Shown: positions 3,110 through 53,723 of the stretch, one piece after another
Position numbering within the stretch: position 1 is the stretch's first letter
Layout of the letters: each line of letters starts with the position of its first letter
Source of the DNA: Actinomycetota bacterium
GTDB lineage: Bacteria; Actinomycetota; Actinomycetes; Actinomycetales; Dermatophilaceae
Direction of reading: 5' to 3'
DNA length: 64,000 bases
Assembly (NCBI GenBank): GCA_040006795.1
Contig: JBDTWH010000166.1
Coordinates: 27,780-91,779, forward strand
Translations under genes and position numbers: made by a program
Notes under the pieces: model-generated
What the model saw: the letters and a program-made list of their open reading frames with translations, nothing else
What the model was told of the DNA's origin: nothing
Databases searched by the model: none

Positions 3110-3394
3110 TCAGGCGCCGTCCAGTCCGAGGCTGAAAGCAGCTTCCAGGTCGTGCTTGGAGTAGGTCCTGAACGCGATGTGGGTCTGGGTGCCCTGGACA
3201 CCGCTGACCTTGTTGAGCTGGTCGGCGATGACATCCGCCAGCTCCTCGTGGTGGCGGACCCGCACGATGGCGATGAGGTCGACATCGCCGGTAACGGAGT
3301 AGACCTCGCTGACGCCGTTGAGGTCGGCGATGGCGGCGGCGACCTCGGGAATGCGGTCGACCTCGGCGTTGATCAAGACGATGGCGGAAATCAC
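3110..3394 (-). CDS. Small Lrp/AsnC-type ligand-binding (RAM) domain protein without an HTH
   Basis: 94 aa, MISAIVLINAEVDRIPEVAAAIADLNGVSEVYSVTGDVDLIAIVRV. This is the beta-alpha-beta-beta-alpha-beta RAM/AsnC_trans_reg pattern. Its GTG start overlaps the stop of the upstream gene (GTGA at 3391-3394). Confidence 0.75.
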   Translation of the reverse strand: MISAIVLINAEVDRIPEVAAAIADLNGVSEVYSVTGDVDLIAIVRVRHHEELADVIADQLNKVSGVQGTQTHIAFRTYSKHDLEAAFSLGLDGA

Positions 3395-5214
3395 GGTTCC
3401 ACCCTAGCCCGCCCGCTCATGGGAGATCTCACTGTCCGTGGCAGGGGGCCGGGAACCGCCAGGCCATCACCGGGCCGACGATGGCGGAGCCCCGGGTCGT
3501 TCGGCTCATCGAAGCTCACGACGTCGCGGTAGGCGGTGGGGTCAGGTTCCAGGCTGTCCCTGGCTGCGCCGGCCCCGTACACAGGGCAGGTCCATTCACC
3601 CTCCATGGAGACGATACGGACGCCGGGCGAGTCCAGCCACCGAAGGATCTTCTCGGTCTCCTCGGCTGAGGCAGAGGAAGCAGGCCCTGGGGAGGAGATC
3701 ACCATCTCGGCGCTGAGTGCCAGCGCCTCGATGTATGGCCGGGGGTCGCCGCCCCGGGGAGTCACTGTGGTGCCGGCGAGCCGTCCGAAACGGACGCAGA
3801 TGATCTCCCAGCCGCAGTGGGGTGTGGGTCGGGCAGCCACGATCTCGGCACTGTTGGCCAGTGGCGCGATGCGCTGGGCGCGCGCGGCTGCCCGTACGAG
3901 ATGCGTCAGCCGGTCACGGACCGCTCCGGCGTCCTCGTAACGTTCTTGGCCGGACAGGCTGCTCATCCGTTGCCGTAGCGCTCCGATGACCTCGCGCGAG
4001 TCGCCCGCGATCATCTCGACCGCGCGCTGGACCACGACGGCATATTCCTGGATGCTCTGCTCGCCCCTGCACGGCGCGCCGCAGCGCCCCATCTCGGCGA
4101 GCACACAGTCGGCATGTCGACCACTGGCCGACATGCGCTTGGTGCATTGGCGCAGCGGGACCACCTCATGAATGGCGGCGATCGCGGACTCGGCTCCCAG
4201 GTGCGAGCCGAAGGGTCCGAAGTAATGGGCTCCGTCGGCCTTCACGTCGCGAACGATGCTCAGTCGCGGGAAGGACTCGATGGTGAGCTTTACCCAGGGT
4301 GCCCGCTCGGGGTTCAGAGAGCGCCGGTTGTACCGAGGTTTGTGCTGAGCTATGAGACGAAGCTCGCGAACCTGCGCCTCCAGAGTGGTGTCGCAGACGA
4401 CCGGCGTCACGCTGGTCGCGATCCCGACCATCTCGGCCATCCGGGTGCGCTGTTCGGACGCTGTGAAGTATGTGCGCACCCGCCGTTGGATGTCCTGTGA
4501 CGTACCGACGTAGAGCACACGCCCCTGGCCGTCCTTGAACAGGTAGACGCCCGGCGCCGAGGGCAGACCCTCCGCGAGATGCCGTTTGCGGCGCTGAGCC
4601 GAAGTGACCCGTGAGGAGAACGTGCTGAGCTCTTCAAGAGTGAGGACCCCGAGGCTGCCAACCCGGGCGAGCAGCCCATGCAGGACGTCGACGGTGGCGC
4701 GGGCATCGTGCAGCGCACGGTGGTCCGGGGTTGTCGCGGCCCCGAAGAGCCGTGCCAGGGTGCCGAGCTTGCGGTTTGGTGCCTCGTCCTTGCTAATCAG
4801 CTGCCTGGCCAGGTGGGCCGTGTCAACCACGCGAAACGCCGGCCAGCTGTGACCGGTCACCGTGGCCGCGGCCTTGAGGAAGGAGATGTCAAAGGGCGCG
4901 TTGTGGGCGACCAGCACGCTGTGCCGGGCGAACTCGAGAAACGCCGGCAGCACGCTGCCGATGCGTGGTGAGTCGGCCACCATCTGGTCGGTGATCCCGG
5001 TCAGAACTGAGATGAACGCAGGGATCGGCTCAGCAGGGTTGACCAGGGTCTGGAACTCACCAAGCACCTCGCCGCCCCGGATCTTGACGGCTCCGACCTC
5101 GGTGATGTGGGCACCGCTCGGACTGCCTCCAGTCGTCTCGAGGTCGACGACCACGAAGGTGACGTCAGCCAGGGGGCTGCCCAGCTCGTCGAGTGTGCCT
5201 TGCACGCCTTGCAT
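3391..5214 (-). CDS. DEDDh 3'-5' exonuclease (DnaQ-like) fused to a GIY-YIG/UvrC-like nuclease domain (Rv2191-like)
   Basis: 607 aa. The N-terminus has FVVVDLETTGG and HNAPFDISFL (Exo I/II motifs). The middle has PGVYLFKDGQGRVLYVGTS...YNRR (GIY-YIG). The C-terminal part is UvrC-like. Confidence 0.85.
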   Translation of the reverse strand: MQGVQGTLDELGSPLADVTFVVVDLETTGGSPSGAHITEVGAVKIRGGEVLGEFQTLVNPAEPIPAFISVLTGITDQMVADSPRIGSVLPAFLEFARHSVLVAHNAPFDISFLKAAATVTGHSWPAFRVVDTAHLARQLISKDEAPNRKLGTLARLFGAATTPDHRALHDARATVDVLHGLLARVGSLGVLTLEELSTFSSRVTSAQRRKRHLAEGLPSAPGVYLFKDGQGRVLYVGTSQDIQRRVRTYFTASEQRTRMAEMVGIATSVTPVVCDTTLEAQVRELRLIAQHKPRYNRRSLNPERAPWVKLTIESFPRLSIVRDVKADGAHYFGPFGSHLGAESAIAAIHEVVPLRQCTKRMSASGRHADCVLAEMGRCGAPCRGEQSIQEYAVVVQRAVEMIAGDSREVIGALRQRMSSLSGQERYEDAGAVRDRLTHLVRAAARAQRIAPLANSAEIVAARPTPHCGWEIICVRFGRLAGTTVTPRGGDPRPYIEALALSAEMVISSPGPASSASAEETEKILRWLDSPGVRIVSMEGEWTCPVYGAGAARDSLEPDPTAYRDVVSFDEPNDPGLRHRRPGDGLAVPGPLPRTVRSPMSGRARVEP

Positions 5215-5221
5215 GGTGACG

Positions 5222-5243
5222 ACGTTAGGGGCAGCGGCTGACA
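5222..5243 (-). promoter_or_regulatory. RecA-independent (PafBC-type, RecA-NDp-like) DNA-damage promoter motif for the DnaQ/GIY-YIG gene
   Basis: The minus strand reads cTGTCAGCC-GCTGCCCC-TAACGT. This fits tTGTCRgtg-N8-TAnnnT. The -10 element ends 7 nt before the ATG at 5214, which implies a leaderless or near-leaderless mRNA. Confidence 0.5.
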
Positions 5244-5307: not shown

Positions 5308-5329
5308 TGTCGGACCCTCGGCCTAGCCT
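5308..5329 (+). promoter_or_regulatory. Second RecA-NDp-like motif, divergent, facing the Cys-rich small ORF
   Basis: The plus strand reads cTGTCGGAC-CCTCGGCC-TAGCCT, with the same spacing as the consensus. It lies about 95 nt upstream of the ATG at 5426. Confidence 0.45.
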
Positions 5330-37339: not shown

Positions 37340-37839
37340 GCGGCCGGGCGGCCTCCGGTGAGCCTCAGCAGCTCGTTGTAGGACGTTGGGAAGACCGCGT
37401 GGGGGTGGCCCGCCGCGGCCCATATCTGGTCATAGCCACTCAGGGAGATGTCGACGACGGTCTCGATGGGATGGCTGAGAGCTATCGGCGCCACACCTCC
37501 GATCGTGAAGCCCGTGTGTTCTCTGACGAAGTCGGCATCGGCGAGGGAGATTGCCCGCAGCTCCAGCAGGTCTGCGAGTCTGAGGGTGTCGACCCGGTGT
37601 GCTCCTGAGGCGAGGACCAGCAGAGGCCGGATCATCTCGTCGCCGCGATCGGCCGCAAAGACCAGGGAGTTGGCGATCTGGGCGATCTCGATCCCCAGCG
37701 CGTCTGCAGCCTGCCTCGCGGTTCTTGCGGCGTCATCCAAAACGGTGATCTGTCCGCGGGTGCCGAAGGACGCGAGCGCAGCGGCCACCCGACGCACGCA
37801 GGGATCGTCGGTTACGTCCTCGCGGCTCAGACCGGTCAT
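37330..37839 (-). CDS. YbaK/EbsC-type aminoacyl-tRNA editing (deacylase) domain protein
   Basis: 169 aa. TARQAADALGIEIAQIANSLVF and GGVAPI are typical of the YbaK/ProX family. Confidence 0.78.
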   Translation of the reverse strand: MTGLSREDVTDDPCVRRVAAALASFGTRGQITVLDDAARTARQAADALGIEIAQIANSLVFAADRGDEMIRPLLVLASGAHRVDTLRLADLLELRAISLADADFVREHTGFTIGGVAPIALSHPIETVVDISLSGYDQIWAAAGHPHAVFPTSYNELLRLTGGRPAAIA

Positions 37840-37953
37840 CTGGCGAACGGTAGCCAGCCCGGGGTCCTTCGGGGAAGAGCACTGGGCGGGATGCTCGGAG
37901 GAGTACCCACGACATCGTCGCAGGAGTCCTCAACAGGTCGGGGGTTGACGGGC

Positions 37954-37975
37954 TGTCGGAGTCGCGGTGTACCTT
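37954..37975 (+). promoter_or_regulatory. RecA-NDp-like (PafBC-type) promoter motif upstream of the polymerase operon
   Basis: cTGTCGGAG-TCGCGGTG-TACCTT fits tTGTCRgtg-N8-TAnnnT. Confidence 0.5.
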
Positions 37976-37983
37976 TGGATTAG

Positions 37984-37999
37984 TCGAACATATGTTCTA
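37984..37999 (+). promoter_or_regulatory. LexA (SOS/Cheo) box
   Basis: TCGAACATATGTTCTA against the actinobacterial TCGAAC-N4-GTTCGA: 11 of 12 defined positions match. It lies in the 17-nt spacer of a possible TTGGAT(37975)-N17-TAGATT(38003) promoter, about 115 nt upstream of the ATG at 38115. Confidence 0.75.
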
Positions 38000-38114
38000 G
38001 ATTTTTCGTTCGACCGGTACGTCTGGTTCTGCGGCGGGCGCCTCGACCCCGTCCGTCGCAGGCCGGACGCACCCTCTGAACCCAACCTCCGCACACGTCC
38101 GAAGGAGCCCGACC

Positions 38115-38444
38115 ATGGTGCGTCGTTATGAGGAGTCCATCGAGGTCCGGGCAGGTGCCGGCGTTCAGGACCCGCCGCCTTCTGCCTTCCTGTGGCGCGG
38201 TCGGCTCTACATCGTCCGCGACGTGATCGGGCACTGGCGAGAGCGCAAGGCATGGTGGCGCGAGGCCCTCGACCCCGATGAAGAGACTGCGGCCCGTGGG
38301 CTGGACTGCCTTGAGCACGAGGTATGGCGGGTGGAAGCCAGCGCCGGCCGACTGGCCAACACCGGGGTGTACGACCTGGGGATGAACGCCCTGGGGATGG
38401 ACGGGCTTGCGCCCAGCTGGCGACTCCTGCGCGTGGCGGACTAG
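38115..38444 (+). CDS. Small Trp/Arg-rich protein, DUF6504-like by recollection
   Basis: 109 aa. AAGGAG RBS 7 nt upstream. FLWRGRLYIVRDVIGHWRERKAWWRE core. First gene behind the LexA box. Confidence 0.65.
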   Translation: MVRRYEESIEVRAGAGVQDPPPSAFLWRGRLYIVRDVIGHWRERKAWWREALDPDEETAARGLDCLEHEVWRVEASAGRLANTGVYDLGMNALGMDGLAPSWRLLRVAD

Positions 38445-38455
38445 GTGGTGTGGCT

Positions 38456-38899
38456 ATGACAACTCGTACTGCAACCGTGCCACGGGCACCCCTGGCCAGC
38501 ACTGCACTGGATCTGCTCGACCGATCCCGGGCCAGCCTGCTGTCGGCCTGCCACGCTGACACCGTCGCTGAGCGCTACATAGAGGCTCACCTCGCCGCGT
38601 TGCGGGCTGCAGCCGCGTTGCTGGCTGCGCGCAGCAGGCCAAGCCGGAGTGCACGGCTGCGCAGCGTGTGGGAGGTGCTGCCGCAGATGGCTCCCGAGCT
38701 GACCGAGTGGGCGGTGTTCTTCGCAGCCTCGGCCAGGCGTCGGGCGGCGTTCGAGCGAGGTTCGGCCGGGCCGGGTGCACGCGAGGCCGATGACCTTCTA
38801 CGGCAGTCCGAGACCTTCTTCGAGCTGATTCAGGGGGCACTCGGCCTGCCCATGAGCCGGCCGTTGCCCGAGTTCATGGCGGTGACCAGGTCGGCATGA
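38456..38899 (+). CDS. HEPN-like helical protein (SAV_6107-family-like by recollection) with an Rx4H motif
   Basis: ORF 38324..38899 trimmed to the ATG at 38456 (MTTRTATV...). Ala/Leu-rich and helical. RYIEAH at codons 40-45. Its stop overlaps the polymerase start (ATGA 38896-38899). Confidence 0.6.
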   Translation: MTTRTATVPRAPLASTALDLLDRSRASLLSACHADTVAERYIEAHLAALRAAAALLAARSRPSRSARLRSVWEVLPQMAPELTEWAVFFAASARRRAAFERGSAGPGAREADDLLRQSETFFELIQGALGLPMSRPLPEFMAVTRSA

Positions 38900-41800
38900 G
38901 TGATGCCTTCGCCCACCTGCACGTCGCGTCCGGTTTCTCGTTGCGTTACGGCGCATCGACCCCGGCGGCGTTGGTGGAACGTGCTTCGGCACTGGGCCAG
39001 CCCGCGCTGGCTCTGACGGACCGTGACGGGCTTTATGGCGCGGTGCGTTTCGTGCAGGCTTGCGACGAGGCCGGCATCGCTCCGGTACTGGGGGTGGACC
39101 TGGCTGTGGAGCGCGGGGTGGACCTGGCTGTGGATTACGTGGGGGACAGACAGGCCAGCTCTCCTGCAGGTCGAGGTATCCGGGCGGGCCGGGCCAGTCC
39201 CGCCCGGGGCGGTGCCGAGGTCGATCCCCGGCATCCCCGGGTCACGGTGCTGGCGCGAGGGCAGAGTGCGGGGGTCGACCCCGGGGTCGGCTGGGGCAGG
39301 TTGTGTCGCCTGGTGACCCAGACCCACCTCAGGGGCGAACGCGGAGCTCCGGTCAGCAGTCCAGAGCTCATCGCCGAGCATGCCACCGACCCCCGGAGCG
39401 GAGCACTGGCTCTGGTGGTCCTGCTCGGGCCGGCCTCTGATGTGGGCCAGGCCTTGCTGGCGCGCCGTCCCGGCCGGGCGCGCATGCTGTTGCGCCAGTG
39501 GGTCAACCTGATGCCCCGCGGCGGAGTGGTTATCGAGGTGGTGTGTCACGGCGGGCCGGAGGGCACCCCGGCCAGCCTCGGACATGCCGCCCGGCTGCTT
39601 GGCCTGGCCACTGAGGTCGGGTTGCCGACGGTGCTCACCGCGGCGGTCCGTCATGCCGATCCTGGCGGTGCCGTGACCGTTGACGTTCTTGATGCTGCCC
39701 GACGCCTCGTGCCACTGGACACGCGCCATCTCGACCGGGTCACCACTGCTGGTCATCTCAGCTCATCGGCCCAGATGTATACCGTGGCCTGCGACGTCGC
39801 CCGGGCCGCCGGCGGCGGGATCAGCGGCGGCAGCAGCGGTGAACGTGACAGGGCTCGCCAGCTGATGGCCGACACGGTGGCCCTGGCACAGGCCTGCACG
39901 CTGGATCTGAGCACCGACATCGGCATCGGCTCGGTGCACCTGCCCGAGCCCTCGGCACTCGGGATTGCCGCGGGTGAGAGCCCCCAGGAGATTTTGGCTG
40001 CTCGTTGTCGGGGGGCCATTGCCACGAGATACGGGGGAGCGGGGGACTGCGAGCTGTCAGCGGTGGCATCACGGCTCGATGACGAGCTTCGCGTCATTGC
40101 CCAGCTTGGCTATCCGACCTACTTCATGACGGTGGCGGCAGTGTGCGACCTGATCCGCGATCTCGGGGTGCGGGTGGCAGCAAGAGGTTCCGGTGCCGGC
40201 AGCCTGGTCAACTACCTGCTGGGCATCAGCGGGGTGGAGCCTTTGCGTTATGGCCTGCTCATGGAGCGGTTCTGCTCACCGCTACGCGCCCAGCTTCCCG
40301 ATATCGACATCGACGTGGAGTCAGCGCGGCGGACCGAGATCTACCAGCATGTCCTGGAGCGCTTTGGCGGGGACAGGGTCACCTGTGTATCGATGATGGA
40401 CACCTACCGGGCGCGCCACGCGATCAGGGACGTGGGCGCCGCCCTGGGGCTGCCGCCGGGTGAGATCGACGTCATCGCCAAGGCGTTTCCGCACATTCGG
40501 GCCCGCGATGTCCGTGGCGCCCTTGCCGAGCTGCCCGAGCTGCGCGCCAGCGGCCTGACTGCTCCTCGCCTGCGTGTTCTCTTCGACCTCGTGGAACGAC
40601 TCGACGGTCTGCCCCGGCACATCGCCGTGCACCCCTGCGGGGTGATCCTGTCCAACAAGGAGCTGCTCGACCGCACCCCGGTCGAGGCCAGCTGGCTGGG
40701 GTTCCCGATGAGCCAGTTCGACAAGGACGACGTCGAGACCCTGGGCCTGCTCAAGCTCGACATCCTCGGCATCCGCATGCAGTCCGCGATGGCGCACGCT
40801 GTCGATGAGGTGGCCCGGGTCGACGGCGTCAGCATCGACCTCGACGACCGGGCTCAGGTCACTCTCGATGATGACCGGGCATTTCGCCTGATCCGGTCCA
40901 CGCACACGCTGGGGTGCTTCCAGATCGAGAGCCCTGGTCAGCGTGAGCTGATCGGCAAGTTCGGGCCGGAGACCTTCGAGGACCTGATCATCGACATCTC
41001 GTTGTTTCGTCCCGGCCCGGTCAAGTCCGACATGATCAGCCCGTTCCTGCTGGCCCGCAATCATTGGCGTTCGCCGGAGTACCTCCACCCCACCCTTGAA
41101 CCAGCGCTGAAGGAGACCCAGGGCGTCGTGGTCTTCCACGAACAGGTGCTCAAGATCGTTGCCGAGACCACCGGTGTCACCCTGGCTCAGGCAGATGAGG
41201 TCCGCAGGGCACTGGGATCCCCTCAGGCTCAGCTGGACATCGAGGCCTGGTGGCGACCTGCAGCGGCGGCCCGGGGCTATGAGCCGGCAGCGGTCGACCG
41301 GATCTGGGAGGTTCTCAAGGCGTTCGCTTCCTTCGGTTTCTGCAAGGCTCACGCGGCAGCCTTCGCGTTGCCCACCTACCAGTCGGCGTGGCTCAAGGCG
41401 CATCACCCGGCGGCCTTCTTGTCCGGTGTGCTCACCCACGACCCGGGCATGTACCCCAAACGGCTGATCCTGGACGACGCACGCAACCTGGGCATCACCA
41501 TCCTGGGGCTGGACGTCAACGCCTCGGGTGCGAGCTACCGGGTGGAACGGGTCTCTCAGTTGGCCCTTGGTGACTGCGACAGTGACGTGCCTGACGGGGG
41601 TCAGACTGATGGTGGCGTGGCTGACGGTGGCGTGCCTGATGGTGGTCTGGCTGATGGTGGCGTGCCTGACAGTGGTCTGGCTGACCGTGTCCCTGTCAGG
41701 CGATCGCTGGTCGCCGACCTTCCCGACGGGCGGGCTTATGGCATCCGGCTGTCTCTGGCCGACGTCAAGGGCATCAGCGAAGCCGAGGTTCAGCGCATTC

Positions 41801-43056
41801 TGGCCGGCCAGCCGTACATCACACTTGCCGACTTCTGGCATCGCGCCCAGGTCAGTCGCCCAGTGGTCGAACGGCTGGTCATGGCCGGGGGGTTCGACTC
41901 GGTCTACGGGCTCAGTGGTCTCTGCGTGGCCTCAGGTGGCAGCGGTACGACCGGGCGGCGAGGCAGGGTGACCCGGCGTGACCTCTTGCTGCATGTGGCC
42001 GAGCTCGACCGGTGGTCTGGTTCGGTGCGCCGATCCGGTCGCAGGGCGGCAGCTCGTGCGCCCAGGTCCGTGGCTGCCAGTGCTGCCGCGGCTACTCGCG
42101 GGGCGACACTGGCGCGAGAGACACGGACGCGCGCAACACCGGCCGGCCCAGCCGCCCCCGAGACGGGAGACGTGCGGCTTCTGGCAGCAGCCCAGTCCCG
42201 AGGCGGGTTGCCCGTCATACCGGCTCGGGAGCAGCCCACCCAGCTCACCCTCGACCTGGGGGACGCCCCCGAGCTCACCACGGCCACCGGCCTGCCCGAG
42301 ATGACGGGGCCAGAGCGGGTTCGGGCCGAGCTGGAGATTCTCGGGCTGGATGCCAGTGCTCACATCGTCGATTTCTACGCCCCGATGTTGCAGGCGCTCG
42401 GAGTGACCCGATCTGGTCAGCTCCTCGGACATCGAAGTCGCTCCGAGCTGTGGGTCGCCGGGGTCAAGGTCGCCACCCAGACACCGCCGGTCCGCTCGGG
42501 TCGACGCGTGGTGTTCCTCACTCTCGACGACTCCACAGGCCCGGTCGACGCAACCTTCTTCGAGGACGTCCAAGGTCCCTATGCAGCGACAGTTTTCCAT
42601 TCCTGGATGCTTCTGGTCCGCGGGATCCTGCGACGGACCGGCTCCAGGGGGGTCTCCCTGCGCGCAACCGGGGCGTGGGAGCTGTCCGGGCTGTGGGATG
42701 CCTGGAGTCAGGGTGGTCTCGAGGCTGTGCACGCGGCGCTGTCCGAAGCCGATGGTCATGGTGTCGATGAGTCTGGTGTCGATGAGTCTGGTGTCGATGA
42801 GTCTGGTGTCGATGAGTCTGGTGTCGATGAGTCTGGTGCTGACCCGGGCAGCTCTGCTGGTGGGATGGACGGCCCCCGCACCCGGATGCTGGTGCATGCC
42901 TCAGGGTTCAGACAGTCGCCCTATGCGGACGTCAAACCTGCCGGCGGCGATGTCAGGGACTCCCACAGCCTGCCCGGGGAAGGCCGCGCAGTTCCCTCTG
43001 AAGGCGCCCCGCCGCGCAAGCTGTGGCACGCCAGCCCCGGAAGCTCAGGGCGCTAA
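38896..43056 (+). CDS. dnaE2: DnaE-family DNA polymerase III alpha-like, DnaE2/ImuC-type, with large low-complexity insertions
   Basis: 1386 aa. N-terminus FAHLHVASGFSLRYGAS...LALTDRDGLYG (PHP-like, DnaE2-style GAS). Palm motifs LPDIDIDVE and LLKLDILGIRMQS. VVFHEQV and FCKAHAAAFA. OB-fold-like C-terminal region, then an acidic (GVDES)5 tail. The DnaE2 assignment rests on the N-terminal pattern plus the LexA box, not on phylogeny. Confidence 0.85.
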   Translation: MSDAFAHLHVASGFSLRYGASTPAALVERASALGQPALALTDRDGLYGAVRFVQACDEAGIAPVLGVDLAVERGVDLAVDYVGDRQASSPAGRGIRAGRASPARGGAEVDPRHPRVTVLARGQSAGVDPGVGWGRLCRLVTQTHLRGERGAPVSSPELIAEHATDPRSGALALVVLLGPASDVGQALLARRPGRARMLLRQWVNLMPRGGVVIEVVCHGGPEGTPASLGHAARLLGLATEVGLPTVLTAAVRHADPGGAVTVDVLDAARRLVPLDTRHLDRVTTAGHLSSSAQMYTVACDVARAAGGGISGGSSGERDRARQLMADTVALAQACTLDLSTDIGIGSVHLPEPSALGIAAGESPQEILAARCRGAIATRYGGAGDCELSAVASRLDDELRVIAQLGYPTYFMTVAAVCDLIRDLGVRVAARGSGAGSLVNYLLGISGVEPLRYGLLMERFCSPLRAQLPDIDIDVESARRTEIYQHVLERFGGDRVTCVSMMDTYRARHAIRDVGAALGLPPGEIDVIAKAFPHIRARDVRGALAELPELRASGLTAPRLRVLFDLVERLDGLPRHIAVHPCGVILSNKELLDRTPVEASWLGFPMSQFDKDDVETLGLLKLDILGIRMQSAMAHAVDEVARVDGVSIDLDDRAQVTLDDDRAFRLIRSTHTLGCFQIESPGQRELIGKFGPETFEDLIIDISLFRPGPVKSDMISPFLLARNHWRSPEYLHPTLEPALKETQGVVVFHEQVLKIVAETTGVTLAQADEVRRALGSPQAQLDIEAWWRPAAAARGYEPAAVDRIWEVLKAFASFGFCKAHAAAFALPTYQSAWLKAHHPAAFLSGVLTHDPGMYPKRLILDDARNLGITILGLDVNASGASYRVERVSQLALGDCDSDVPDGGQTDGGVADGGVPDGGLADGGVPDSGLADRVPVRRSLVADLPDGRAYGIRLSLADVKGISEAEVQRILAGQPYITLADFWHRAQVSRPVVERLVMAGGFDSVYGLSGLCVASGGSGTTGRRGRVTRRDLLLHVAELDRWSGSVRRSGRRAAARAPRSVAASAAAATRGATLARETRTRATPAGPAAPETGDVRLLAAAQSRGGLPVIPAREQPTQLTLDLGDAPELTTATGLPEMTGPERVRAELEILGLDASAHIVDFYAPMLQALGVTRSGQLLGHRSRSELWVAGVKVATQTPPVRSGRRVVFLTLDDSTGPVDATFFEDVQGPYAATVFHSWMLLVRGILRRTGSRGVSLRATGAWELSGLWDAWSQGGLEAVHAALSEADGHGVDESGVDESGVDESGVDESGVDESGADPGSSAGGMDGPRTRMLVHASGFRQSPYADVKPAGGDVRDSHSLPGEGRAVPSEGAPPRKLWHASPGSSGR
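39091..39134 (+). repeat. In-frame 24-bp-period duplication (ggggtggacctggctgtgga x2) in the polymerase PHP region
   Basis: Copies at 39091-39110 and 39115-39134. Encodes GVDLAVER-GVDLAVDY. Confidence 0.92.
41593..41682 (+). repeat. Six imperfect in-frame 15-bp repeats (DGGQT-DGGVA-DGGVP-DGGLA-DGGVP-DSGLA) inserted in the polymerase
   Basis: Read directly. The units differ by 1-4 nt. Confidence 0.9.
42760..42834 (+). repeat. Five perfect in-frame 15-bp repeats (ggtgtcgatgagtct) encoding (GVDES)5 near the polymerase C-terminus
   Basis: Read directly. All five copies are identical, and a sixth degenerate copy follows. Confidence 0.97.
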
Positions 43057-43140: not shown

Positions 43141-43917
43141 GTGGCTGATGAAGGGCGACGTAGTGGGCGCAGCGACGTCGAGACCTCCGTGCGTACCTCT
43201 GCTGTGTGGGAGTCCGTGCGGGCCGTGGTGGTCGACCGCGAGCAACAGCTCGGTCGCCGGCTGCGCGTCGTCGATCTTGGTGGTGGCACAGGCGGTCTGG
43301 CAGTTCCACTGGCTCAGCTCGGTCATCACGTCACGGTCATCGACCCCAGCCTGGACGCGTTGGCCTCGCTGCACCGCCGGGCTGGCGACTCCGGGGTCGC
43401 CGGGCTCATCGTTGCCGTGCAGGGCGATGCCGCAAACCTGCTTGAAGTCCACCCCGACGCTGACGCCGACCTCGTGTGCTGTCATGGCGCGCTGGAGTTC
43501 GTCGACGACCCGGCAGCGACCCTGCGATCCATCGCCGGGGTGCTCGCAGACGGCGGATACGTCAGTCTCGTGGTCGCCACCCGCATCGCCGCCGTGCTGG
43601 CCCGTGCGCTTGCCGGCCAGTTCGCCCAGGCGCAGTGCGCGCTCACCAGTGATGACGGTCGATGGGGTCCGGCCGATCCGCTACCGCGGCGCTTCGATGC
43701 GGGCGGCATCACTGCCCTGGTCGAGGGCGCAGGGCTGGGCGTCCAGGACATTCATGGCGTTCGCATCTTCAGTGATCTCGTACCTGCCGCCTATGTCGAC
43801 TTCGATGCCGACCGGGCCGCACTGCTCAAGCTCGAGCAGGCTGCTTCTCGTCATCCCGAGTACGCCTTCCTCGGGCACATCGGTGCAGCTCTGCATGTGC
43901 TGGCCCGCCGTAGCTAA
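43141..43917 (+). CDS. Class I SAM-dependent methyltransferase
   Basis: 258 aa. Motif I VVDLGGGTGGLAVPLA, then HHVTVIDPS. The start codon is uncertain (GTG 43141 or downstream). Confidence 0.78.
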   Translation: MADEGRRSGRSDVETSVRTSAVWESVRAVVVDREQQLGRRLRVVDLGGGTGGLAVPLAQLGHHVTVIDPSLDALASLHRRAGDSGVAGLIVAVQGDAANLLEVHPDADADLVCCHGALEFVDDPAATLRSIAGVLADGGYVSLVVATRIAAVLARALAGQFAQAQCALTSDDGRWGPADPLPRRFDAGGITALVEGAGLGVQDIHGVRIFSDLVPAAYVDFDADRAALLKLEQAASRHPEYAFLGHIGAALHVLARRS

Positions 43918-44001: not shown

Positions 44002-45261
44002 ATGAGCCGGCGCCAGTTCGTCGTTCCCGAACGCCAGGGCGATCAAGCTCCTGACGACGAAGGCTGCTCGATCCTGCACGTGGATATGGACGCGTTCTAC
44101 GCGCTGGCGTCCCTGCTGAGCCGGCCCGAGCTAAAAGGCACGCCAGTCATCATCGCTGGTGGCGGCAATCGAGGGGTCGTCCTGTCGGCGACCTACGAGG
44201 CGCGCGCTTTCGGTGTGCACGCAGCGATGCCGACCGCGCGGGCCCGACGGTTGTGTCCACAGGCCACTGTCGTGGCTCCTGACCATGCCCGCTACGAACG
44301 AATCTCCCGAGCCGTCATGGCGGTGTTCGCCAGCGTGACGCCGTTCGTCGAGCCGCTGTCCCTGGACGAGGCGTTCCTGGATGTGTCCGGCGCCCGCCGC
44401 CGGCTGGGCTCGCCACGTCAGATTGCCCAGGGGATCCGCGACACGATCGCTGACGAGCAGGGCATCACCTGCTCGGTCGGGGTCGCTACCACCAAGTTCA
44501 TCGCGAAGCTCGCGTCGGGCTTGGCCAAACCCGACGGCCTGCTCGTGGTTCCCGAGACCGAGGTGGTCGGATTCCTTCACCAGCTGCCGGTCGGCGCCCT
44601 GTGGGGTGTCGGGGAGCGCACGGAGGAGGTTCTGCAGCGTCTGGGGCTGCAGACCGTGGCCGACATCGCCCACACGCCGGTGGACACCTTGCGCAGAGCC
44701 CTTGGCGACAACGCCGGACCTGCCCTGCACGCGCTGGCCTGGGGACGCGACTCACGCTCAGTGATGCCCATTCGTCGCGAACGCAGCATCGGTGCTGACG
44801 AGACGTTCCCCTACGACGTGGACGACCCGGCCTACATCCACCGTGAGCTGCTCAAGCTCAGCGACCGCACCGCGGCCCGGGTGCGTGCAGCGGGGATGAT
44901 GGGACGAACGATCTCGATCAAGGTGCGCTTCTCGGACTTCACCACGATCACGCGATCCAAGACCCTGCGCGACCCCACCGACGTCAGCCGCGATATCTAC
45001 GCGACGGCTCGCGCACTGTTCGACGCGTTGGGTCTGCAGAGAGCCCGCCTGCGCCTGGTCGGCGTTCGGATGGAAGGCCTGCTGGAATCCGATCAGGCAC
45101 CGGTACAGGGGCTGCTCGATGAGCCGGAGCACGGCTGGCGTGACGCCGATCGCGCGGTGGATCGGGCCAGTGCGCGGTTCGGTGCCGGTGCGGTTCGACC
45201 TGGCAGTCTGGTGGAAGGTGAGCGGTTGGCTACCGCTCCGAAGCGCGGCGACATATCCTGA
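44002..45261 (+). CDS. dinB: DNA polymerase IV (Y-family)
   Basis: 419 aa. ILHVDMDAFYA, SLDEAFLDVSG, LPVGALWGVGERT. Confidence 0.92.
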   Translation: MSRRQFVVPERQGDQAPDDEGCSILHVDMDAFYALASLLSRPELKGTPVIIAGGGNRGVVLSATYEARAFGVHAAMPTARARRLCPQATVVAPDHARYERISRAVMAVFASVTPFVEPLSLDEAFLDVSGARRRLGSPRQIAQGIRDTIADEQGITCSVGVATTKFIAKLASGLAKPDGLLVVPETEVVGFLHQLPVGALWGVGERTEEVLQRLGLQTVADIAHTPVDTLRRALGDNAGPALHALAWGRDSRSVMPIRRERSIGADETFPYDVDDPAYIHRELLKLSDRTAARVRAAGMMGRTISIKVRFSDFTTITRSKTLRDPTDVSRDIYATARALFDALGLQRARLRLVGVRMEGLLESDQAPVQGLLDEPEHGWRDADRAVDRASARFGAGAVRPGSLVEGERLATAPKRGDIS

Positions 45262-46784: not shown

Positions 46785-47063
46785 CCATTCCGTTGTAGTG
46801 GGTGCCGTTGGCGGTCCTACCTGGTGTCGCGATCTCGTCCGTATCCCTGCTGGTCCTGATTCTGTTGCCGATACGTCTTAGACGCTTGCCGAGTGGTTTG
46901 CGTTGTGGGCTAACCCATTCGCCGGTTGTAACAGTCAAACACGAAGATTGCTTCCCGAAGTCCATTCTGCCCAGATCTGACGAAGAATCTTGCCGTGTTT
47001 CTCTCTCCGCGCAATCCCCTGCGGGCCCGAATGCCGTGCTCCCCCGCGTGGCTGTGGCGTGCC

Positions 47064-47085
47064 TGTCGGGGCGGGGAGATAGCCT
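47064..47085 (+). promoter_or_regulatory. RecA-NDp-like promoter motif upstream of the ParE-like gene
   Basis: cTGTCGGGG-CGGGGAGA-TAGCCT. The -10 hexamer is the same as at 5324. It ends 50 nt before the ATG at 47136. Confidence 0.45.
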
Positions 47086-47135
47086 GCCAGAGAGTCTCAG
47101 ACCGGCCTCAGCCGGCGCTCAGCTGCACCGAGAGG

Positions 47136-49349
47136 ATGTCCGTGGCCATCGCCACCCGAACAAGAAGAACCGCAACGACGTCTGGCGCCGCCTCAGGCTC
47201 TGGCAGACAGAGCGCCGGGTCGCCCAACGCTGACTCGAGCGGCGCTGACTCACCGACATACATGGCTCGGCACCTGCAGGTCCTGGAAGGTCTCGAGGCG
47301 GTTCGCAAGCGTCCGGCGATGTATATCGGGTCGACGGACGCGCGTGGGCTGATGCACTGCGTGTGGGAGATCATCGACAACTCGGTTGACGAGGCTCTGG
47401 CGGGGGTCTGCGATCACATCGACGTGGCGTTGATGGCCGATGGGTCGGTCGAGGTCCGTGACAACGGGCGGGGCATTCCCGTGGACATGGAGCCACGCAC
47501 CGGACTGTCTGGTGTCGAGGTGGTTTTCACCAAGCTGCACGCCGGTGGCAAGTTCGGTGGCGGCTCTTACACCGCCTCCGGTGGCCTGCACGGCGTGGGC
47601 GCCTCGGTGGTCAACGCGCTGTCCGCCCGGCTGGATGTCGAGGTCGACCGCGGGATGAGGACCCACGCGATGAGCTTTCGCCGGGGTGAGCCCGGCGTCT
47701 TCACCGACGTCTTGGGCGACAAGACACCGCATGCCGGTTTCACGGCGTACGTGGACAACAGCGAGCTGAGGATCGTCGGCAAGGTGGGCCGCGGAAAGAC
47801 CGGCAGCAGAGTTCGCTACTGGCCAGATGACCAGATCTTCCTGGCAGACGCCGCATTCAGCTATGACGAGCTAGCCTCACGGGCCCGCCAGACGTCCTAC
47901 CTCATCCCGGGTCTGACACTCGTTATCCGTGACGAGCGTGGTGTGCCCGGCACGCCGGGCGAAGACGGACCCTTTGAGGAGACCTTCCTGCATGAGGGAG
48001 GCATCAGCGAGTTCGCCGAGTTCCTGGCTATCGACCCGCCCCTGACCGACGTGTGGCGTCTGCAGGGTTCGGGAACATTCCATGAGAACGTGCCGGTGCT
48101 CGACGACCGCGGCCGGATGACGCCCACCGACCTCGAGCGCGAGTGCCATGTTGACGTTGCACTGAGGTGGGGTACCGGCTACGAGACCAGGACCCTGTCA
48201 TTCGTCAACATCATCGCCACTCACAAGGGTGGCACCCATATGGCAGGCTTCGAGCAGGCGATGCTCAGGGTCCTCCGCAAGCAGCTGGAGGTCAACGCCC
48301 GCCGGCTCAAGGTCGGGTCGGACAAGGTCGAGAAGGAGGACGTGTTGGCCGGCCTCACGGCGGTGGTCACGGTCCGACTCGCAGAGCCCCAGTTCGAGGG
48401 GCAGACCAAGGAGGTGCTGGGGACCTCGGCGGTACGCGCCATCGTGGCCAAGGTCATAGACAAAGAGCTCACCGCCATGCTGACCGCTACCAGGCGGGGT
48501 GGGAAGGCCCAGGCCTCGATGCTTCTGGAAAAAGTAGTTGCCGAGATGAAGTCGCGGATCAGCGCACGGCAGCACAAGGAGACCCAACGGCGCAAGAACG
48601 CGCTGGAGACCTCCTCCCTGCCGGCCAAGCTGGCCGACTGCCGAAGCGGCGATATCGAGCGGACGGAGCTCTTCATCGTCGAGGGTGACAGCGCCCTCGG
48701 AACCGCAAAGCTGGCCAGGTCCTCGGACCACCAGGCGCTCCTGCCGATTCGGGGCAAGATCCTGAACGTCCAGAAGGCGTCGCTGGCCGACATGCTCAAG
48801 AACGCGGAGTGTGCGGCGATCCTTCAGGTCATCGGCGCCGGCTCGGGCCGCTCGTTCGACCTGAGTGCCGCGCGGTACGGGAAAGTCATCATCATGACTG
48901 ACGCGGACGTCGACGGAGCGCACATCCGCACCCTGCTCCTGACGCTGTTCTTTCGTTACATGCGGCCCCTGGTCGAGGCGGGACGGGTCTTTGCCGCGGT
49001 CCCCCCTTTGCATCGCATCGAGGTGATCAACCCTGGCAGCAGGAAGAACGACCTCCTTTACACCTACAGCGAGCCCGAGATGCGTCGGGTGTTGTCCACG
49101 CTGGAGAAGAAGGGCCGCAAGGTCAAACAGCCGCTCCAGCGGTATAAGGGCCTGGGCGAGATGGATGCCGACCAGCTGGCCGAGACGACGATGGATCCTC
49201 GCCATCGGATGCTGCGTCGGGTGACCCTCAAGGACGCCGAGAACGCAGAGGTTGTGTTCGACCTGCTGATGGGTCACGATGTCGCGCCGCGCAAGGACTT
49301 CATTATCGAGTCCGCGGCAGCGCTGGACCGCCAGCGCATCGACGCCTGA
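47136..49349 (+). CDS. parE: Type IIA topoisomerase subunit B (ParE / topoisomerase IV-like)
   Basis: ORF 46995..49349 trimmed to ATG 47136 (GTG 47142 is also possible). LEGLEAVRKRPAMYIGS, GHKL ATPase motifs, Toprim EGDSA and MTDADVDGAHI. Confidence 0.88.
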   Translation: MSVAIATRTRRTATTSGAASGSGRQSAGSPNADSSGADSPTYMARHLQVLEGLEAVRKRPAMYIGSTDARGLMHCVWEIIDNSVDEALAGVCDHIDVALMADGSVEVRDNGRGIPVDMEPRTGLSGVEVVFTKLHAGGKFGGGSYTASGGLHGVGASVVNALSARLDVEVDRGMRTHAMSFRRGEPGVFTDVLGDKTPHAGFTAYVDNSELRIVGKVGRGKTGSRVRYWPDDQIFLADAAFSYDELASRARQTSYLIPGLTLVIRDERGVPGTPGEDGPFEETFLHEGGISEFAEFLAIDPPLTDVWRLQGSGTFHENVPVLDDRGRMTPTDLERECHVDVALRWGTGYETRTLSFVNIIATHKGGTHMAGFEQAMLRVLRKQLEVNARRLKVGSDKVEKEDVLAGLTAVVTVRLAEPQFEGQTKEVLGTSAVRAIVAKVIDKELTAMLTATRRGGKAQASMLLEKVVAEMKSRISARQHKETQRRKNALETSSLPAKLADCRSGDIERTELFIVEGDSALGTAKLARSSDHQALLPIRGKILNVQKASLADMLKNAECAAILQVIGAGSGRSFDLSAARYGKVIIMTDADVDGAHIRTLLLTLFFRYMRPLVEAGRVFAAVPPLHRIEVINPGSRKNDLLYTYSEPEMRRVLSTLEKKGRKVKQPLQRYKGLGEMDADQLAETTMDPRHRMLRRVTLKDAENAEVVFDLLMGHDVAPRKDFIIESAAALDRQRIDA

Positions 49350-50157: not shown

Positions 50158-51171
50158 TCAACCGAGATCGCTGACCAATGACCATTGCCAGACTGGCACG
50201 GGGTCCTTGCCGCAGGACGCTGCCAGGTCCTCCCCACGTCGACTACGCACAGCCTCAACATCCCAGTGGCGACCATCGACGTGGCTTACCCGACACTGCC
50301 AGGCGTCCTCCCGATCTGCTCGCCGGCTTGCGGTCGTCGAGAGCGCCAGCAGGCTGGCTTCCTGGATCTGCTGTCGCACCATGGACTCCGCTGCCTGTCC
50401 CGCCGCGGGCAGGTGGCTGCGTCCCCGGTCGTTCACCTCTCCCAGGAGCGCGGTCGGAAGCTCCCCGACCGCCGCGGCATCGATCACGGCGACGGCTGAG
50501 GCACCGCTGAGCCGGCCGAAGGTCTGGCCGGCTGGCAGCAGCACCCCGGTCGGGGCGAACCGGTGGCCCCCGGTGTGCGAACATTCCCACACCTGGCCGG
50601 AACGTTGCGATGCGGCTTGAAAGGCGACCTCTCGACCACGTGCCGAGCAGCAGACGTCCCGTTTGGAGTTTGTGCAGATGAGCAGGACAGGCCCGGCCGA
50701 GCGCGCCGCCCCGGGCAGGGCGCCCTGGACGGCATCGATGTCACCCCTGGCAAGAGCCTGCATCTCCGGCTGGCCCAGTCGGGTCAGGCCGGCCGGGTCA
50801 TTCACATCAGCCTCGAGCAGCCAGGGGCGAGACGCCAGCCCGCCGGCCAGATAGACCCTCCGTGTGTCGACCCTCTGCGCGTCGACCTTCCGGGCGCTGT
50901 GCTCGTGGAGGTCCGCATGACTGCCCGGGCGCCGGATCAGGATCAAGCGACCCCCGGCGTCCTTGCATCTCCGGTCGAGGCTCTGGCCAAGGCGGGGATC
51001 GAGGTGGGACTGTACTGCGGCCTGGGCACCCCAGGGACCGTTCTGCTCGAGCGCAACCCAGAACGTGGCGGTGGGGGCGGTGCCGAGTGCCGATACGCCG
51101 GCGATGTCCCAGATCACCGAACAGGCATCTGGTCTGCTGCGGCGAGGGCGCTCGACCGCAGCGTCGCTCAC
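50158..51171 (-). CDS. Sucrase/ferredoxin-like (thioredoxin-like [2Fe-2S]) family protein
   Basis: ORF 50158..51411 trimmed to the GTG at 51171, which overlaps the parC stop (GTGA). LICTNSKRDVCCSARG...CSHTGGHRFAP. Confidence 0.72.
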   Translation of the reverse strand: MSDAAVERPRRSRPDACSVIWDIAGVSALGTAPTATFWVALEQNGPWGAQAAVQSHLDPRLGQSLDRRCKDAGGRLILIRRPGSHADLHEHSARKVDAQRVDTRRVYLAGGLASRPWLLEADVNDPAGLTRLGQPEMQALARGDIDAVQGALPGAARSAGPVLLICTNSKRDVCCSARGREVAFQAASQRSGQVWECSHTGGHRFAPTGVLLPAGQTFGRLSGASAVAVIDAAAVGELPTALLGEVNDRGRSHLPAAGQAAESMVRQQIQEASLLALSTTASRRADREDAWQCRVSHVDGRHWDVEAVRSRRGEDLAASCGKDPVPVWQWSLVSDLG

Positions 51172-53723
51172 TCCTTGCCCGCCGGGAACTCGGGCGTTGT
51201 CTCCAGGTCCAGTGACAGCACCAGATCGTCGGTCGTTGCGTCCGGAAGAGCTGGTGCGGGTAGGTCCGTGGGCTCGGGTATCGGTCCTGCGATGGCACCG
51301 ATCGCTGCGGCAGCCGGAAGGCCGGAGCCGTCGCGCTTCCCGGTGGCATCGGGCAGGTCCAGCGCAACCCCGTTGGCAGCAGCCGCCCTCGCGGGACTTC
51401 CGCCGGCCCACCCGAGGATCAGCGTGTCCTCTCCACGCAGGAAACGATGGCAGCGGACGCCACCGGTGGCACGACCCTTGGCCGGGTACTCGGCATACGG
51501 GGTGACCTTCAGTGATCCGGGCTCCGTGCCCGGCAGGGCGCTGGAGGACCCGCTGGAGGTGACCACGACGTTGGTTGTCGACGGATCGAGCGCCGTGAAG
51601 AACATGGCGCGTGCGCCGGCCGCGAGGTTGATGCCGGCCATCCCTCCCGCGCTCCGACCTTGAGGGCGCACAGAGGATGCCGGGAACCGCAGCAGCTGAG
51701 CGTCCGAGGTGATGAACACGAGGTCCTCATCACCGGTCCGTAGCTCGACCGCACCCACCACCTGGTCGCCGGGTCGCAGACTGATGATGTCCCAGTCATC
51801 CTTGTTGCCGGGGTAGTCGGTGGTCACTCGTTTGACCACGCCCTGGGCCGTTCCCAGCGCTAGTCCGGCGGAGTCCTGCGACAGCGACGTCAGGACCACC
51901 GGCTGCTCATCCTTGGGCAGATCGACGAAGGCTGCCAGCGGTGCGCCGCCAGACAGCGACGGGGTGCCGTTGGTCGGCGGCAGGATGGGCAGGTCCAGCG
52001 CGGCGAGCCGGATCATCCGCCCCCGCGACGTGACGAGAGCGACGTTGCCCCTGATGGTGGTCTGGACTGCGGCCGTCACAACGTCGTGCTTGTGCCGGGC
52101 GCCCTGCGTGGGTAAGGCCTCCACATTGGTGGTGCGTGCCATCAGGCCTGTGGAGGACAGCAGAACCCAGCAGGGGTCGTCTGTCAGCTCGAGGGGCGTC
52201 GCGGCAGTGACCGGGCTCCCGGCGGACTCCAGCAGCACCGTGCGACGCGGCGTCCCATGTGCTTTGGCGACTTCGGCGAGCTCATTCGACACCGTCTTCT
52301 GGAGCAGCTTCTCGTCGCCGAGGATCGCACGCAACGCCTCGATCTGACGTTCCAGCTCGGCCTTCTCGCTTTCGAGCTCGACCTTGGAGAACTTCGTCAG
52401 CCGGCGCAGCTGAAGGTCGAGGATGTACGTGGCCTGCGGGTCCGAGAGGTCGAAGACGTCCATGAGCCGGGCCTTGGCGATCGCCGCGTCATCGGAGGCC
52501 CGGATGACCTGGATGACCTCGTCGATATCCAGGATCGCGATGAGCAGGCCCTCGACGAGGTGCAGCCGCTCCTCGCGTTTGCGCAGGCGGTAGGTGCTGC
52601 GCCGGCGCACCACGTCGAGGCGGAAGTCGACGTAGACCCTCAGCAGGTCCTTCAGACCGAGCGTGCGCGGCTGGCCGTCGACGAGCGCAACGTTGTTGAT
52701 CCCGAAGTTCTCCTCCATCGGCGTCATCTTGAAGAGCTGTTCCAGCACCGCCTGGGGGTGAAAACCGCCCTTGATCTCGATGACCAGCTGTAAGCCGTGC
52801 TTGCGGTCGGTCAGGTCCTTGACGTCGCTGATGCCCTGAAGCTTCTTGGACTGGACGAGATCCTTGATCTTCTCGATGACCTTCTCGGGTCCGACCAGGT
52901 AGGGCAGCTCCGTGACGACGATGCCCAGCTTTCGCGGGGTCACGTGCTCGATCCGCGTCGTCGCCCGGGTGCGAAAAGACCCACGCCCGCCAAGGTACGC
53001 GTCGCGGATCCCCTCCAGCCCGACGATCTTCCCTCCGCACGGGAGGTCGGGGCCCGGGACGAACTTCATCAGGTCATCCAGCGAGCACTGCGGGTTGGCC
53101 ATCAGGTGACGAGCCGCGCCGATGATCTCCACGAGGTTGTGTGGAGCCATGTTCGTGGCCATGCCGACCGCGATACCGCTGGCACCGTTCACGAGCAGGT
53201 TGGGGAAGGCAGCGGGCATCACGCCCGGCTGCATGAGCTGGTCGTCGTAGTTGGGAACGAAGTCAACGGTCTCCTCGTCGAGACTGTCAGTCATCAGCAT
53301 CGCGGCTGCAGCGAGCCGGGCCTCTGTGTAGCGGGCAGCGGCGGGCCCGTCATCCAGCGAGCCGAAGTTTCCGTGACCGTCCACCAGCGGCATGCGCATC
53401 GTGAAGGGCTGGGACATGCGCACCAGCGCGTCATAGATGGAGCCGTCACCGTGGGGGTGGTACTTGCCCATGACCTCGCCGACCACCCGGCTGCTCTTCA
53501 CGTGTCCACGCTCTGGGCGGAGCCCGAGCTCGTTCATGCCGAACAGGATCCGTCGTTGCACCGGCTTGAGCCCATCGCGGGCGTCGGGCAGGGCACGAGA
53601 GTAGATCACCGAGTAGGCGTACTCCAGGAAAGCCCCCTGCATCTCCTCCTCGACGTCGATGTCGACGATCCGCTCGGTGAAGTCTGCCTCCGGCGGTGGG
53701 GTGGATGACGTTCGGCGGGCCAT
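51168..53723 (-). CDS. parC: Type IIA topoisomerase subunit A (ParC / topoisomerase IV-like)
   Basis: 851 aa. [13 protein letters not shown] and the catalytic Tyr context AARYTEARL. No QRRGGKG GyrA-box is visible in the C-terminal domain, which favours ParC over GyrA. Confidence 0.9.

Follow-up and report, generated by a model that had tools for sequence, protein, structure and literature searches.

The 64,000-nucleotide stretch of contig JBDTWH010000166.1 from a Dermatophilaceae bacterium (hereafter the window) contains, at positions 37945-38003, a control region that probably acts as one composite promoter under DNA-damage control. As read from the sequence, a single -10 element would be served by a PafBC-type input at about -26, and LexA would sit across the predicted transcription start. 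The PafBC-type motif lies on the + strand, 140 nt upstream of an operon encoding a standalone ImuB-C protein, a DnaE2B-like polymerase and DinB, and is oriented toward it. Since the motif pair is conserved and stands before an error-prone polymerase operon, both damage circuits very probably converge here, as the initial annotation of this DNA had suggested. The weight it gave to this convergence was overstated, as joint control by SOS and PafBC has already been published for mycobacterial mutasome genes (PMC8682763).

Elements of the control region and their conservation

The sequence of the region is ttgacgggcTGTCGGagtcgcggtgTACCTTtggattagTCGAACATATGTTCTAgatt. All strings named in the initial annotation, namely TGTCGG with TACCTT, the LexA box and TTGGAT-N17-TAGATT, were found where it had placed them. 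The TGTCGG element (37954-37959, + strand) occupies -28 to -23 when numbered relative to the -10 element, and the 5' part of the PafBC motif obtained by chromatin immunoprecipitation sequencing in M. smegmatis occupies -28 to -23 as well (PMC8635444). Together with the -10 hexamer TACCTT (37970-37975, + strand; TAnnnT), it forms TGTCGG-AGTCGCGGTG-TACCTT (37954-37975), an exact fit to the 22-nt PafBC consensus tGTCgg(N10)tA(N3)T. A GG dinucleotide at 37966-37967 (+ strand; -16/-15) falls outside the published consensus. Three nucleotides upstream of TGTCGG is a -35-like hexamer, TTGACG (37945-37950, + strand; about -37 to -32), which the initial annotation did not discuss and which is separated from the -10 hexamer by a 19-nt spacer.

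The LexA (SOS) box TCGAACATATGTTCTA (37984-37999, + strand) begins 8 nt after the -10 hexamer. It matches TCGAAC-N4-GTTCGA at 11 of the 12 defined positions, in agreement with the initial annotation, and is the sole site of such quality in the window. The distance from the -10 hexamer (6-8 nt) predicts a start at an A or G at about 37982-37983 (+ strand), so that the LexA operator would extend from roughly +2 to +18. An additional half-site, GTTCGAC (38008-38014, + strand), follows the LexA box by 8-10 nt and, with GTCGAAC (37983-37989), makes up an inverted repeat of 7 nt; it is kept in the clade of the window and in two other loci (L021 and L028).

The frequency of these patterns in the window was compared with chance expectation. 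TGTCR-N11-TANNNT matched four times against 0.31 expected. A LexA box with at most one mismatch was found once against 0.14 expected; 13 of 100 shuffles contained at least one such box, and the box alone was thus not significant. The composite of PafBC-type motif and LexA box occurred once in the window and in none of the 100 shuffles.

Conservation was determined with 80 loci from genomes, retrieved with an alignment of homologues of the first gene product, DUF6504. Most belonged to the Dermatophilaceae/Intrasporangiaceae (Terrabacter, Intrasporangium, Humibacillus, Pedococcus and Phycicoccus) and five were from Streptacidiphilus. In about 70 genomes the composite recurred upstream of the orthologous gene with its spacing unchanged, between flanks that could not be aligned. 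When all 1.6 Mb of these loci were searched on both strands, 58 of 60 PafBC-type matches and 73 of 79 LexA boxes (at most one mismatch) were located within 450 nt upstream of the DUF6504 gene. The TAnnnT hexamer followed TGTCGG at exactly 10 nt in the orthologous loci. The distance from the -10 hexamer to the LexA box was 7-9 nt in nearly all aligned loci and 5-6 nt in three, and the box itself was mostly a perfect TCGAAC-N4-GTTCGA (12 of 12). The motif pair noted initially is therefore real, with its fixed mutual distance, its conservation across genera and its absence from all shuffles.

Information content was calculated for 46 representatives with flanks less than 60% identical, anchored on the -10 hexamer. 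Peaks were found only at cTTGAC (-38 to -33), TGTCGG (-28 to -23), GG (-16/-15) and TCGAACA-NN-TGTTCGA, while flanking and spacer columns carried about 0-0.3 bit. Within TGTCGG, the bases of the GTC triplet, which is the part recognised by PafB, were nearly invariant: C-25 was present in 46 of 46 representatives, G-27 in 45 and T-26 in 44; the two G residues at -16 and -15 were retained in 46 and 43 of them. The cTTGAC columns reached 0.9-1.4 bit, the element being TTGAC(A/G) at N19 from TAnnnT. In one clade of close relatives (L015, L016, L018, L019 and L020) TGTCG(G/C)-N10-TACATT was intact and the right half of the LexA box was degenerate (GTCC for GTTC); LexA control may be weaker in these organisms.

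A different arrangement was found in Streptacidiphilus. There, before the same cassette, a TTACTCT -10 element is followed after 8 nt by a perfect LexA box. All five loci (L064, L072, L074, L075 and L077) also share a perfectly conserved string, TTGTCAGTGG-N8-GAGCAT, which precedes the box by 59-94 nt in a tandem arrangement instead of a stack. This string, at about -137 to -99 counted from the start of the DUF6504 gene, fits the classical string of the RecA-independent promoter (RecA-NDp) except that the first T of the -10 element is replaced by G. The GG dinucleotide also recurs in it, as TGTCAG-N6-GG-N2-GAGCAT. Both inputs thus appear to be kept at another geometry, suggesting selection for the dual input and not for the particular stack.

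Metagenome contigs were also scanned for TGTCGG-N10-TANNNT-N5-11-TCGAAC-N4-GTTC, using the motif only and ignoring gene content. At least 121 composite sites were found in at least 120 metagenome stretches. Among the matches listed, 70 of 121 immediately preceded homologues of genes of this cassette (ImuB-C/DUF6504, HEPN or DnaE); identity to the protein of the window fell to as little as about 30%, and GC content varied widely. Seven of the listed sites preceded DUF222/HNH proteins of the 13E12-repeat type (e.g. L086, L091, L138, L148 and L194), 18 preceded small LysM membrane proteins of the Rv2719c/ChiZ type, mostly on contigs of about 50% GC (e.g. L107, L116, L125, L183 and L187), 15 preceded other genes, and 11 had too little downstream DNA to be classified. 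The LysM and DUF222-HNH gene classes are LexA targets in M. tuberculosis (PMC3381160). Chance will account for some of the metagenome matches, but not for their clustering before one cassette and before classical SOS genes of Actinobacteria. Among the matches listed, 53 of 70 cassette promoters had TTGAC at a distance of 3-5 nt before TGTCGG, versus 0 of 7, 5 of 18 and 0 of 15 of the other stacked promoters. It was also absent from the three other PafBC-type sites of the window, and many distant cassette promoters consisted of TGTCGG-N10-TAnnnT without TTGAC.

Proposed mechanism and alternative explanations

By analogy with mycobacteria, PafBC activated by single-stranded DNA would recruit or adapt the RNA polymerase-SigA holoenzyme via the -26 element to start at TACCTT. 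As long as LexA is intact, its binding to the near-consensus operator, across the predicted start and the first 16-18 transcribed bases, would keep the open complex from forming or RNA polymerase from leaving the promoter. The mutagenic polymerases would then be fully expressed only after LexA cleavage (by RecA with single-stranded DNA), with PafBC boosting this expression or being required for it; the proteins that bind, and the AND or OR logic with which they act, are inferred here from the motifs. Once LexA is removed, TTGACG at its over-long 19-nt spacing might allow weak PafBC-independent initiation from the same -10 hexamer. In M. tuberculosis, transcription of Rv3395c (imuA'), Rv1378c and Rv2100 has been mapped to begin within their SOS boxes (PMC3381160), so the geometry found here is typical of an actinobacterial LexA-repressed promoter. 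PafBC has been reported in almost every actinobacterial species (PMC8635444).

Several observations weigh against this reading. Neither a pafBC gene (with helix-turn-helix and WYL domains) nor a lexA gene was detected in the 64-kb window by Pfam scans of about 40 open reading frames, and the transcription start is a prediction from geometry. For M. tuberculosis ruvC, a 2010 article by Dawson et al. reportedly describes, to judge by its title, RecA-independent induction despite an appropriately placed SOS box. It is therefore uncertain whether LexA could veto PafBC-driven initiation. Furthermore, PafBC promoters have been described as lacking a -35 consensus, with sigma region 4 held off the DNA by PafC (PMC8635444); here cTTGAC(A/G) is conserved at -38 to -32, so the promoter may not need PafBC. 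The M. smegmatis PafBC binding motif was also reported as not conserved in S. venezuelae (PMC9380542), a report with which the conserved Streptacidiphilus string contrasts.

An unlikely alternative, although one with several points in its favour, is a promoter with LexA as its sole damage input, where sigma-A would use TTGACG-N19-TACCTT and TGTCGG would be kept for spacer geometry or for an unrelated factor. The conservation of TTGACR at a fixed 19-nt distance is consistent with it, as is the Streptacidiphilus locus L064, in which TTGACG-N19-TACTCT is followed by a LexA box and the spacer contains no TGTC; the dnaE2-dinP operon of S. venezuelae is likewise a LexA target (PMC9380542). However, spacer bases are normally unconserved, yet the GTC at -27 to -25 hardly varies, unlike the spacer columns next to it. 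The six bases with their N10 distance also reproduce the PafBC motif exactly. A near-invariant GTC among varied flanks and spacer, in the exact N10 register, favours PafBC input. In addition, the stack of -26 element, -10 hexamer and LexA box occurs without TTGAC before distant cassettes and other SOS genes, and a 19-nt spacer is suboptimal for sigma-70-type holoenzymes. A sigma-70 promoter and terminator scan of 37800-38150 called nothing; as it allowed only 16-18 nt spacers, TTGACG-N19-TACCTT was outside its range. To our knowledge, no promoter of an extracytoplasmic function (ECF) or alternative sigma factor combines TGTCGG with TAnnnT.

We regard it as improbable that a different activator, for example a homodimeric WYL regulator, binds TTGACR-N3-TGTCGG as an imperfect inverted repeat, GACA-N3-TGTC, from -37 to -25. 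GACA and TGTC do form such a repeat in taxa with TTGACA, and TTGAC is specific to cassette promoters, but TTGACG, found in about half of the taxa including the window, breaks it. The three central bases were complementary in 4 of 9 triplet types, which is the chance level, many distant cassette promoters have no TTGAC, and the PafBC motif itself is described in the literature as non-palindromic. The near-invariant GTC and its exact N10 register count against such an activator too. This alternative was suggested by SiwR, a WYL regulator whose binding site is an imperfect palindrome of 19 bp located between -35 and -10 (PMC10693628). SiwR as the direct regulator was rejected because it controls DinB-superfamily metalloenzymes and not polymerases (PMC10693628). 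An extended palindrome, GACAG-G-CTGTC with a covarying centre, was also considered and rejected: about half of the central triplets were non-complementary, and TTGACG breaks the repeat in the clade of the window.

The initial annotation had proposed a second promoter, TTGGAT-N17-TAGATT (37975-38003, + strand), whose spacer is filled by the LexA box, and hence one PafBC promoter and one separate LexA-controlled promoter. The strings are present, and a TAGATT-like TAnnnT follows the box in the window and a few of its closest relatives (L001, L002, L003 and L013). However, TTGGAT-N17-TAGATT is weak, agreeing with the consensus at 7 of 12 positions, was not called by the sigma-70 scan and is not conserved: both hexamers differ among the closest relatives, where TTGGAT is replaced by TAGGAT, TCAGAT or TCGGAT, most of the family has no TAnnnT after the box, and the columns carry about 0 bit in the 46 representatives. 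Two separate promoters are accordingly a very remote explanation. The idea of dual control was upheld as far as the two inputs are concerned, and the two promoters are better replaced by one -10 hexamer served by two upstream elements. Chance co-occurrence without any regulatory role could appeal to the LexA box, which alone is not significant, but with no composite in 100 shuffles and fixed spacing across genera and metagenomes it is effectively refuted.

Beyond the composite promoter itself, we tentatively consider a distinct three-element class, defined by TTGACR at N19 from the -10 hexamer, a PafBC -26 element and LexA across the start, and dedicated to DnaE2B-PolY-ImuB-C cassettes across Actinobacteria. 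Here the same -10 hexamer would be used weakly by sigma-A alone via the misplaced -35 element and strongly by PafBC-adapted sigma-A, with LexA as the common veto. This extension is possible but doubtful. If it were true, the class would form a two-key switch restricting mutagenic synthesis to conditions that trigger both sensors, and it would depart from the rule by which a PafBC promoter has no -35 element.

The downstream operon, its leader and other sites in the window

The region precedes five genes on the + strand, encoding in order ImuB-C (DUF6504), a HEPN_SAV_6107 protein, DnaE2B, a methyltransferase and DinB. The first (38115-38444) encodes a standalone ImuB-C of 109 amino acids (Pfam PF20114, E 5.5e-21), 39% identical (E 2e-15) to the ImuB-C protein VEP41449 of Tessaracoccus lapidicaptus. 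No mention of DUF6504 was found in a literature search, a comparison of its profile with PDB sequences gave one meaningless match (E 0.14), and an AlphaFold2 model from a 24-sequence alignment had a predicted local distance difference test score (pLDDT) of 42, too poor for use. The HEPN_SAV_6107 family gene follows at 38456-38899 with an inferred start codon (Pfam PF18726, E 8e-30); the family does not conserve the catalytic motif, according to a survey of HEPN proteins.

The third gene (38896-43056), whose start overlaps the HEPN stop, encodes a C-family polymerase of DnaE2 type (DnaE2B-like) with 1386 amino acids. Its score against M. tuberculosis DnaE1 (5LEW) was 326 bits, below that against E. 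coli Pol III alpha, indicating that it is not the replicative DnaE1. The best NCBIfam model was 'error-prone DNA polymerase', with a score below the cut-off of that model. In-frame tandem repeats were observed at 41578-41689 (units of 15, 30 and 45 nt) and 42750-42838 (15 nt, 5.9 copies). They encode low-complexity insertions of the DGGxxDGG and (VDESG)n types, which partly explain the unusual length of the protein. A class I S-adenosylmethionine-dependent methyltransferase gene (43141-43917), syntenic in related loci, is followed by a gene for DNA polymerase IV (DinB, of the Y family, PolY; 44002-45261; NCBIfam NF003015, 387 bits, above the cut-off). The DinB protein is 54% identical (E 1e-137) to Tessaracoccus PolY VEP41451 and contains the catalytic motifs DMDAFY and SLDEAFLD, so that it looks active.

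The gene order was the same in every related locus of sufficient length, Streptacidiphilus included, and the HEPN_SAV_6107 and methyltransferase genes were conserved members of the cassette in both the Dermatophilaceae loci and Streptacidiphilus. A 2026 survey of polymerases defined a DnaE2B group without ImuA or ImuB, which in Actinobacteria comes with active PolY, standalone ImuB-C and RecA (PMC12926913). The operon is predicted to be of this "DnaE2B-PolY-ImuB-C" mutasome type, the assignment to the DnaE2B group following that survey. With a DnaE2B, an apparently active DinB/PolY and an ImuB-C identified, the initial description of an error-prone-polymerase operon was correct.

Between the promoter and the first gene, a consensus structure from 16 sequences predicts a hairpin in the 5' untranslated region (38028-38062, + strand), in which a GC-rich stem of 13 bp carries the loop CCUCGACCC; the fold of the untranslated region had a z-score of -3.0. 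The 9-nt loop was invariant and changes in the stem were mostly from G-C to G-U; a loop-like CTCGACCCC was retained even where the flanks differ (L049, L052, L066 and L068). An Rfam scan of 37700-38300, hairpin included, gave no match at E<=1. A Shine-Dalgarno sequence, GAAGGAG (38101-38107, + strand), lies 7 nt before the ATG and is conserved in the hairpin alignment.

Two of the three further PafBC-type motifs of the window are correctly oriented upstream of DNA-metabolism genes. TGTCAG-N10-TAACGT (5222-5243, - strand) ends 8 nt before the ATG of a gene (3391-5214, - strand) for a 607-amino acid protein with RNase_T exonuclease and GIY-YIG domains, which we take to resemble the DnaQ/UvrC-like Rv2191 type that is damage-inducible in mycobacteria. 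Its transcript would be essentially leaderless, and a second TGTCGA lies 10 nt upstream of the motif. A divergent partner, TGTCGG-N10-TAGCCT (5308-5329, + strand), has GG at -16/-15. The next open reading frame on the + strand (5396/5426-5725) encodes a small uncharacterised Cys-rich protein (MIVDCMTCPVRGRRCDDCAV...), followed by a 452-amino acid protein for which no Pfam match was found. The third motif, TGTCGG-N10-TAGCCT (47064-47085, + strand), is located upstream of a GyrB/ParE-like gene (listed as 46995-49349, + strand), near which there is a GyrA/ParC-like gene (51168-53723, - strand). In S. venezuelae the targets of LexA include an extra parE (PMC9380542), and TopoN is among the members of the M. 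smegmatis PafBC regulon (PMC8223512).

Comparison with known damage-controlled promoters

The window promoter resembles the canonical PafBC hybrid promoter, which works by sigma adaptation, in its tGTCgg(N10)tA(N3)T, with GTC at the same distance from the -10 element; it differs by the additional conserved TTGACR at -37 to -32 and the LexA box. Several members of the PafBC regulon carry both a RecA-NDp motif and an SOS box, according to reviews (PMC8223512). Among them in kind are M. tuberculosis ruvC and Rv2719c: each is damage-inducible and has a RecA-NDp/PafBC motif together with at least one LexA operator, with LexA binding observed in vivo (PMC3381160). The genes and the lineage are different here; induction of ruvC and Rv2719c is mostly credited to RecA-NDp, and no -35-like element is described for them.

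In mycobacterial recA, both circuits likewise act on a single gene, through P1 (PafBC) and P2 (LexA); these two sites are separately mutable, and a mutation in one of them abolishes the corresponding input (PMC8682763). The window promoter instead shares one -10 hexamer and places the LexA box across the predicted start. The Streptacidiphilus orthologues are nearer to the recA layout than the window promoter is. The mycobacterial imuA'-imuB/dnaE2 genes are similar in that error-prone DnaE2 machinery is under joint SOS and PafBC control (PMC8682763). In M. tuberculosis imuA', however, the PafBC-linked start is 166 nt upstream of the LexA site, and the cassette there consists of ImuA'-ImuB-DnaE2A; that of the window is ImuB-C/DnaE2B/PolY, and its operon contains neither imuA nor imuB.

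The dnaE2-dinP operon of S. venezuelae shares with the window a DnaE2B-type polymerase, a downstream Y-family gene and LexA boxes upstream, and was strongly induced by mitomycin C (PMC9380542). In contrast, DinB2 of Streptomyces has been placed among the inactive PolY proteins (PMC12926913), whereas the PolY of the window looks active and the -26 element is present. Similar in gene content is the predicted mutasome of Tessaracoccus lapidicaptus, with ImuB-C, PolY and a DnaE2B-like polymerase in one operon (PMC12926913). The window operon adds HEPN_SAV_6107 and the methyltransferase, both of which appear to be absent from Tessaracoccus since the accessions of its ImuB-C, DnaE2B and PolY are consecutive. 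The word 'LexA' does not occur in the main text of the survey, in which regulation of the cassette appears untreated (PMC12926913). The composite promoter, if read correctly, would thus provide a concrete regulatory handle for the DnaE2B-PolY-ImuB-C cassette.

Joint control of mutasome genes by SOS and PafBC, and PafBC-type promoters with an SOS box, are already known in mycobacteria. As the principle of dual control is established, the gain is incremental; what is new is the lineage (Dermatophilaceae and related families), the DnaE2B-PolY-ImuB-C target, the breadth of conservation and the -35-like element. With its fixed geometry, the promoter is a compact natural template on which to ask if an initiation complex formed by PafBC through sigma adaptation is open to a veto by LexA, and if -35 and -26 elements can coexist. 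If our reading is correct, the mycobacterial two-circuit response, LexA repression combined with PafBC activation, would also govern a mutasome other than ImuA/ImuB in soil and wastewater Actinobacteria.

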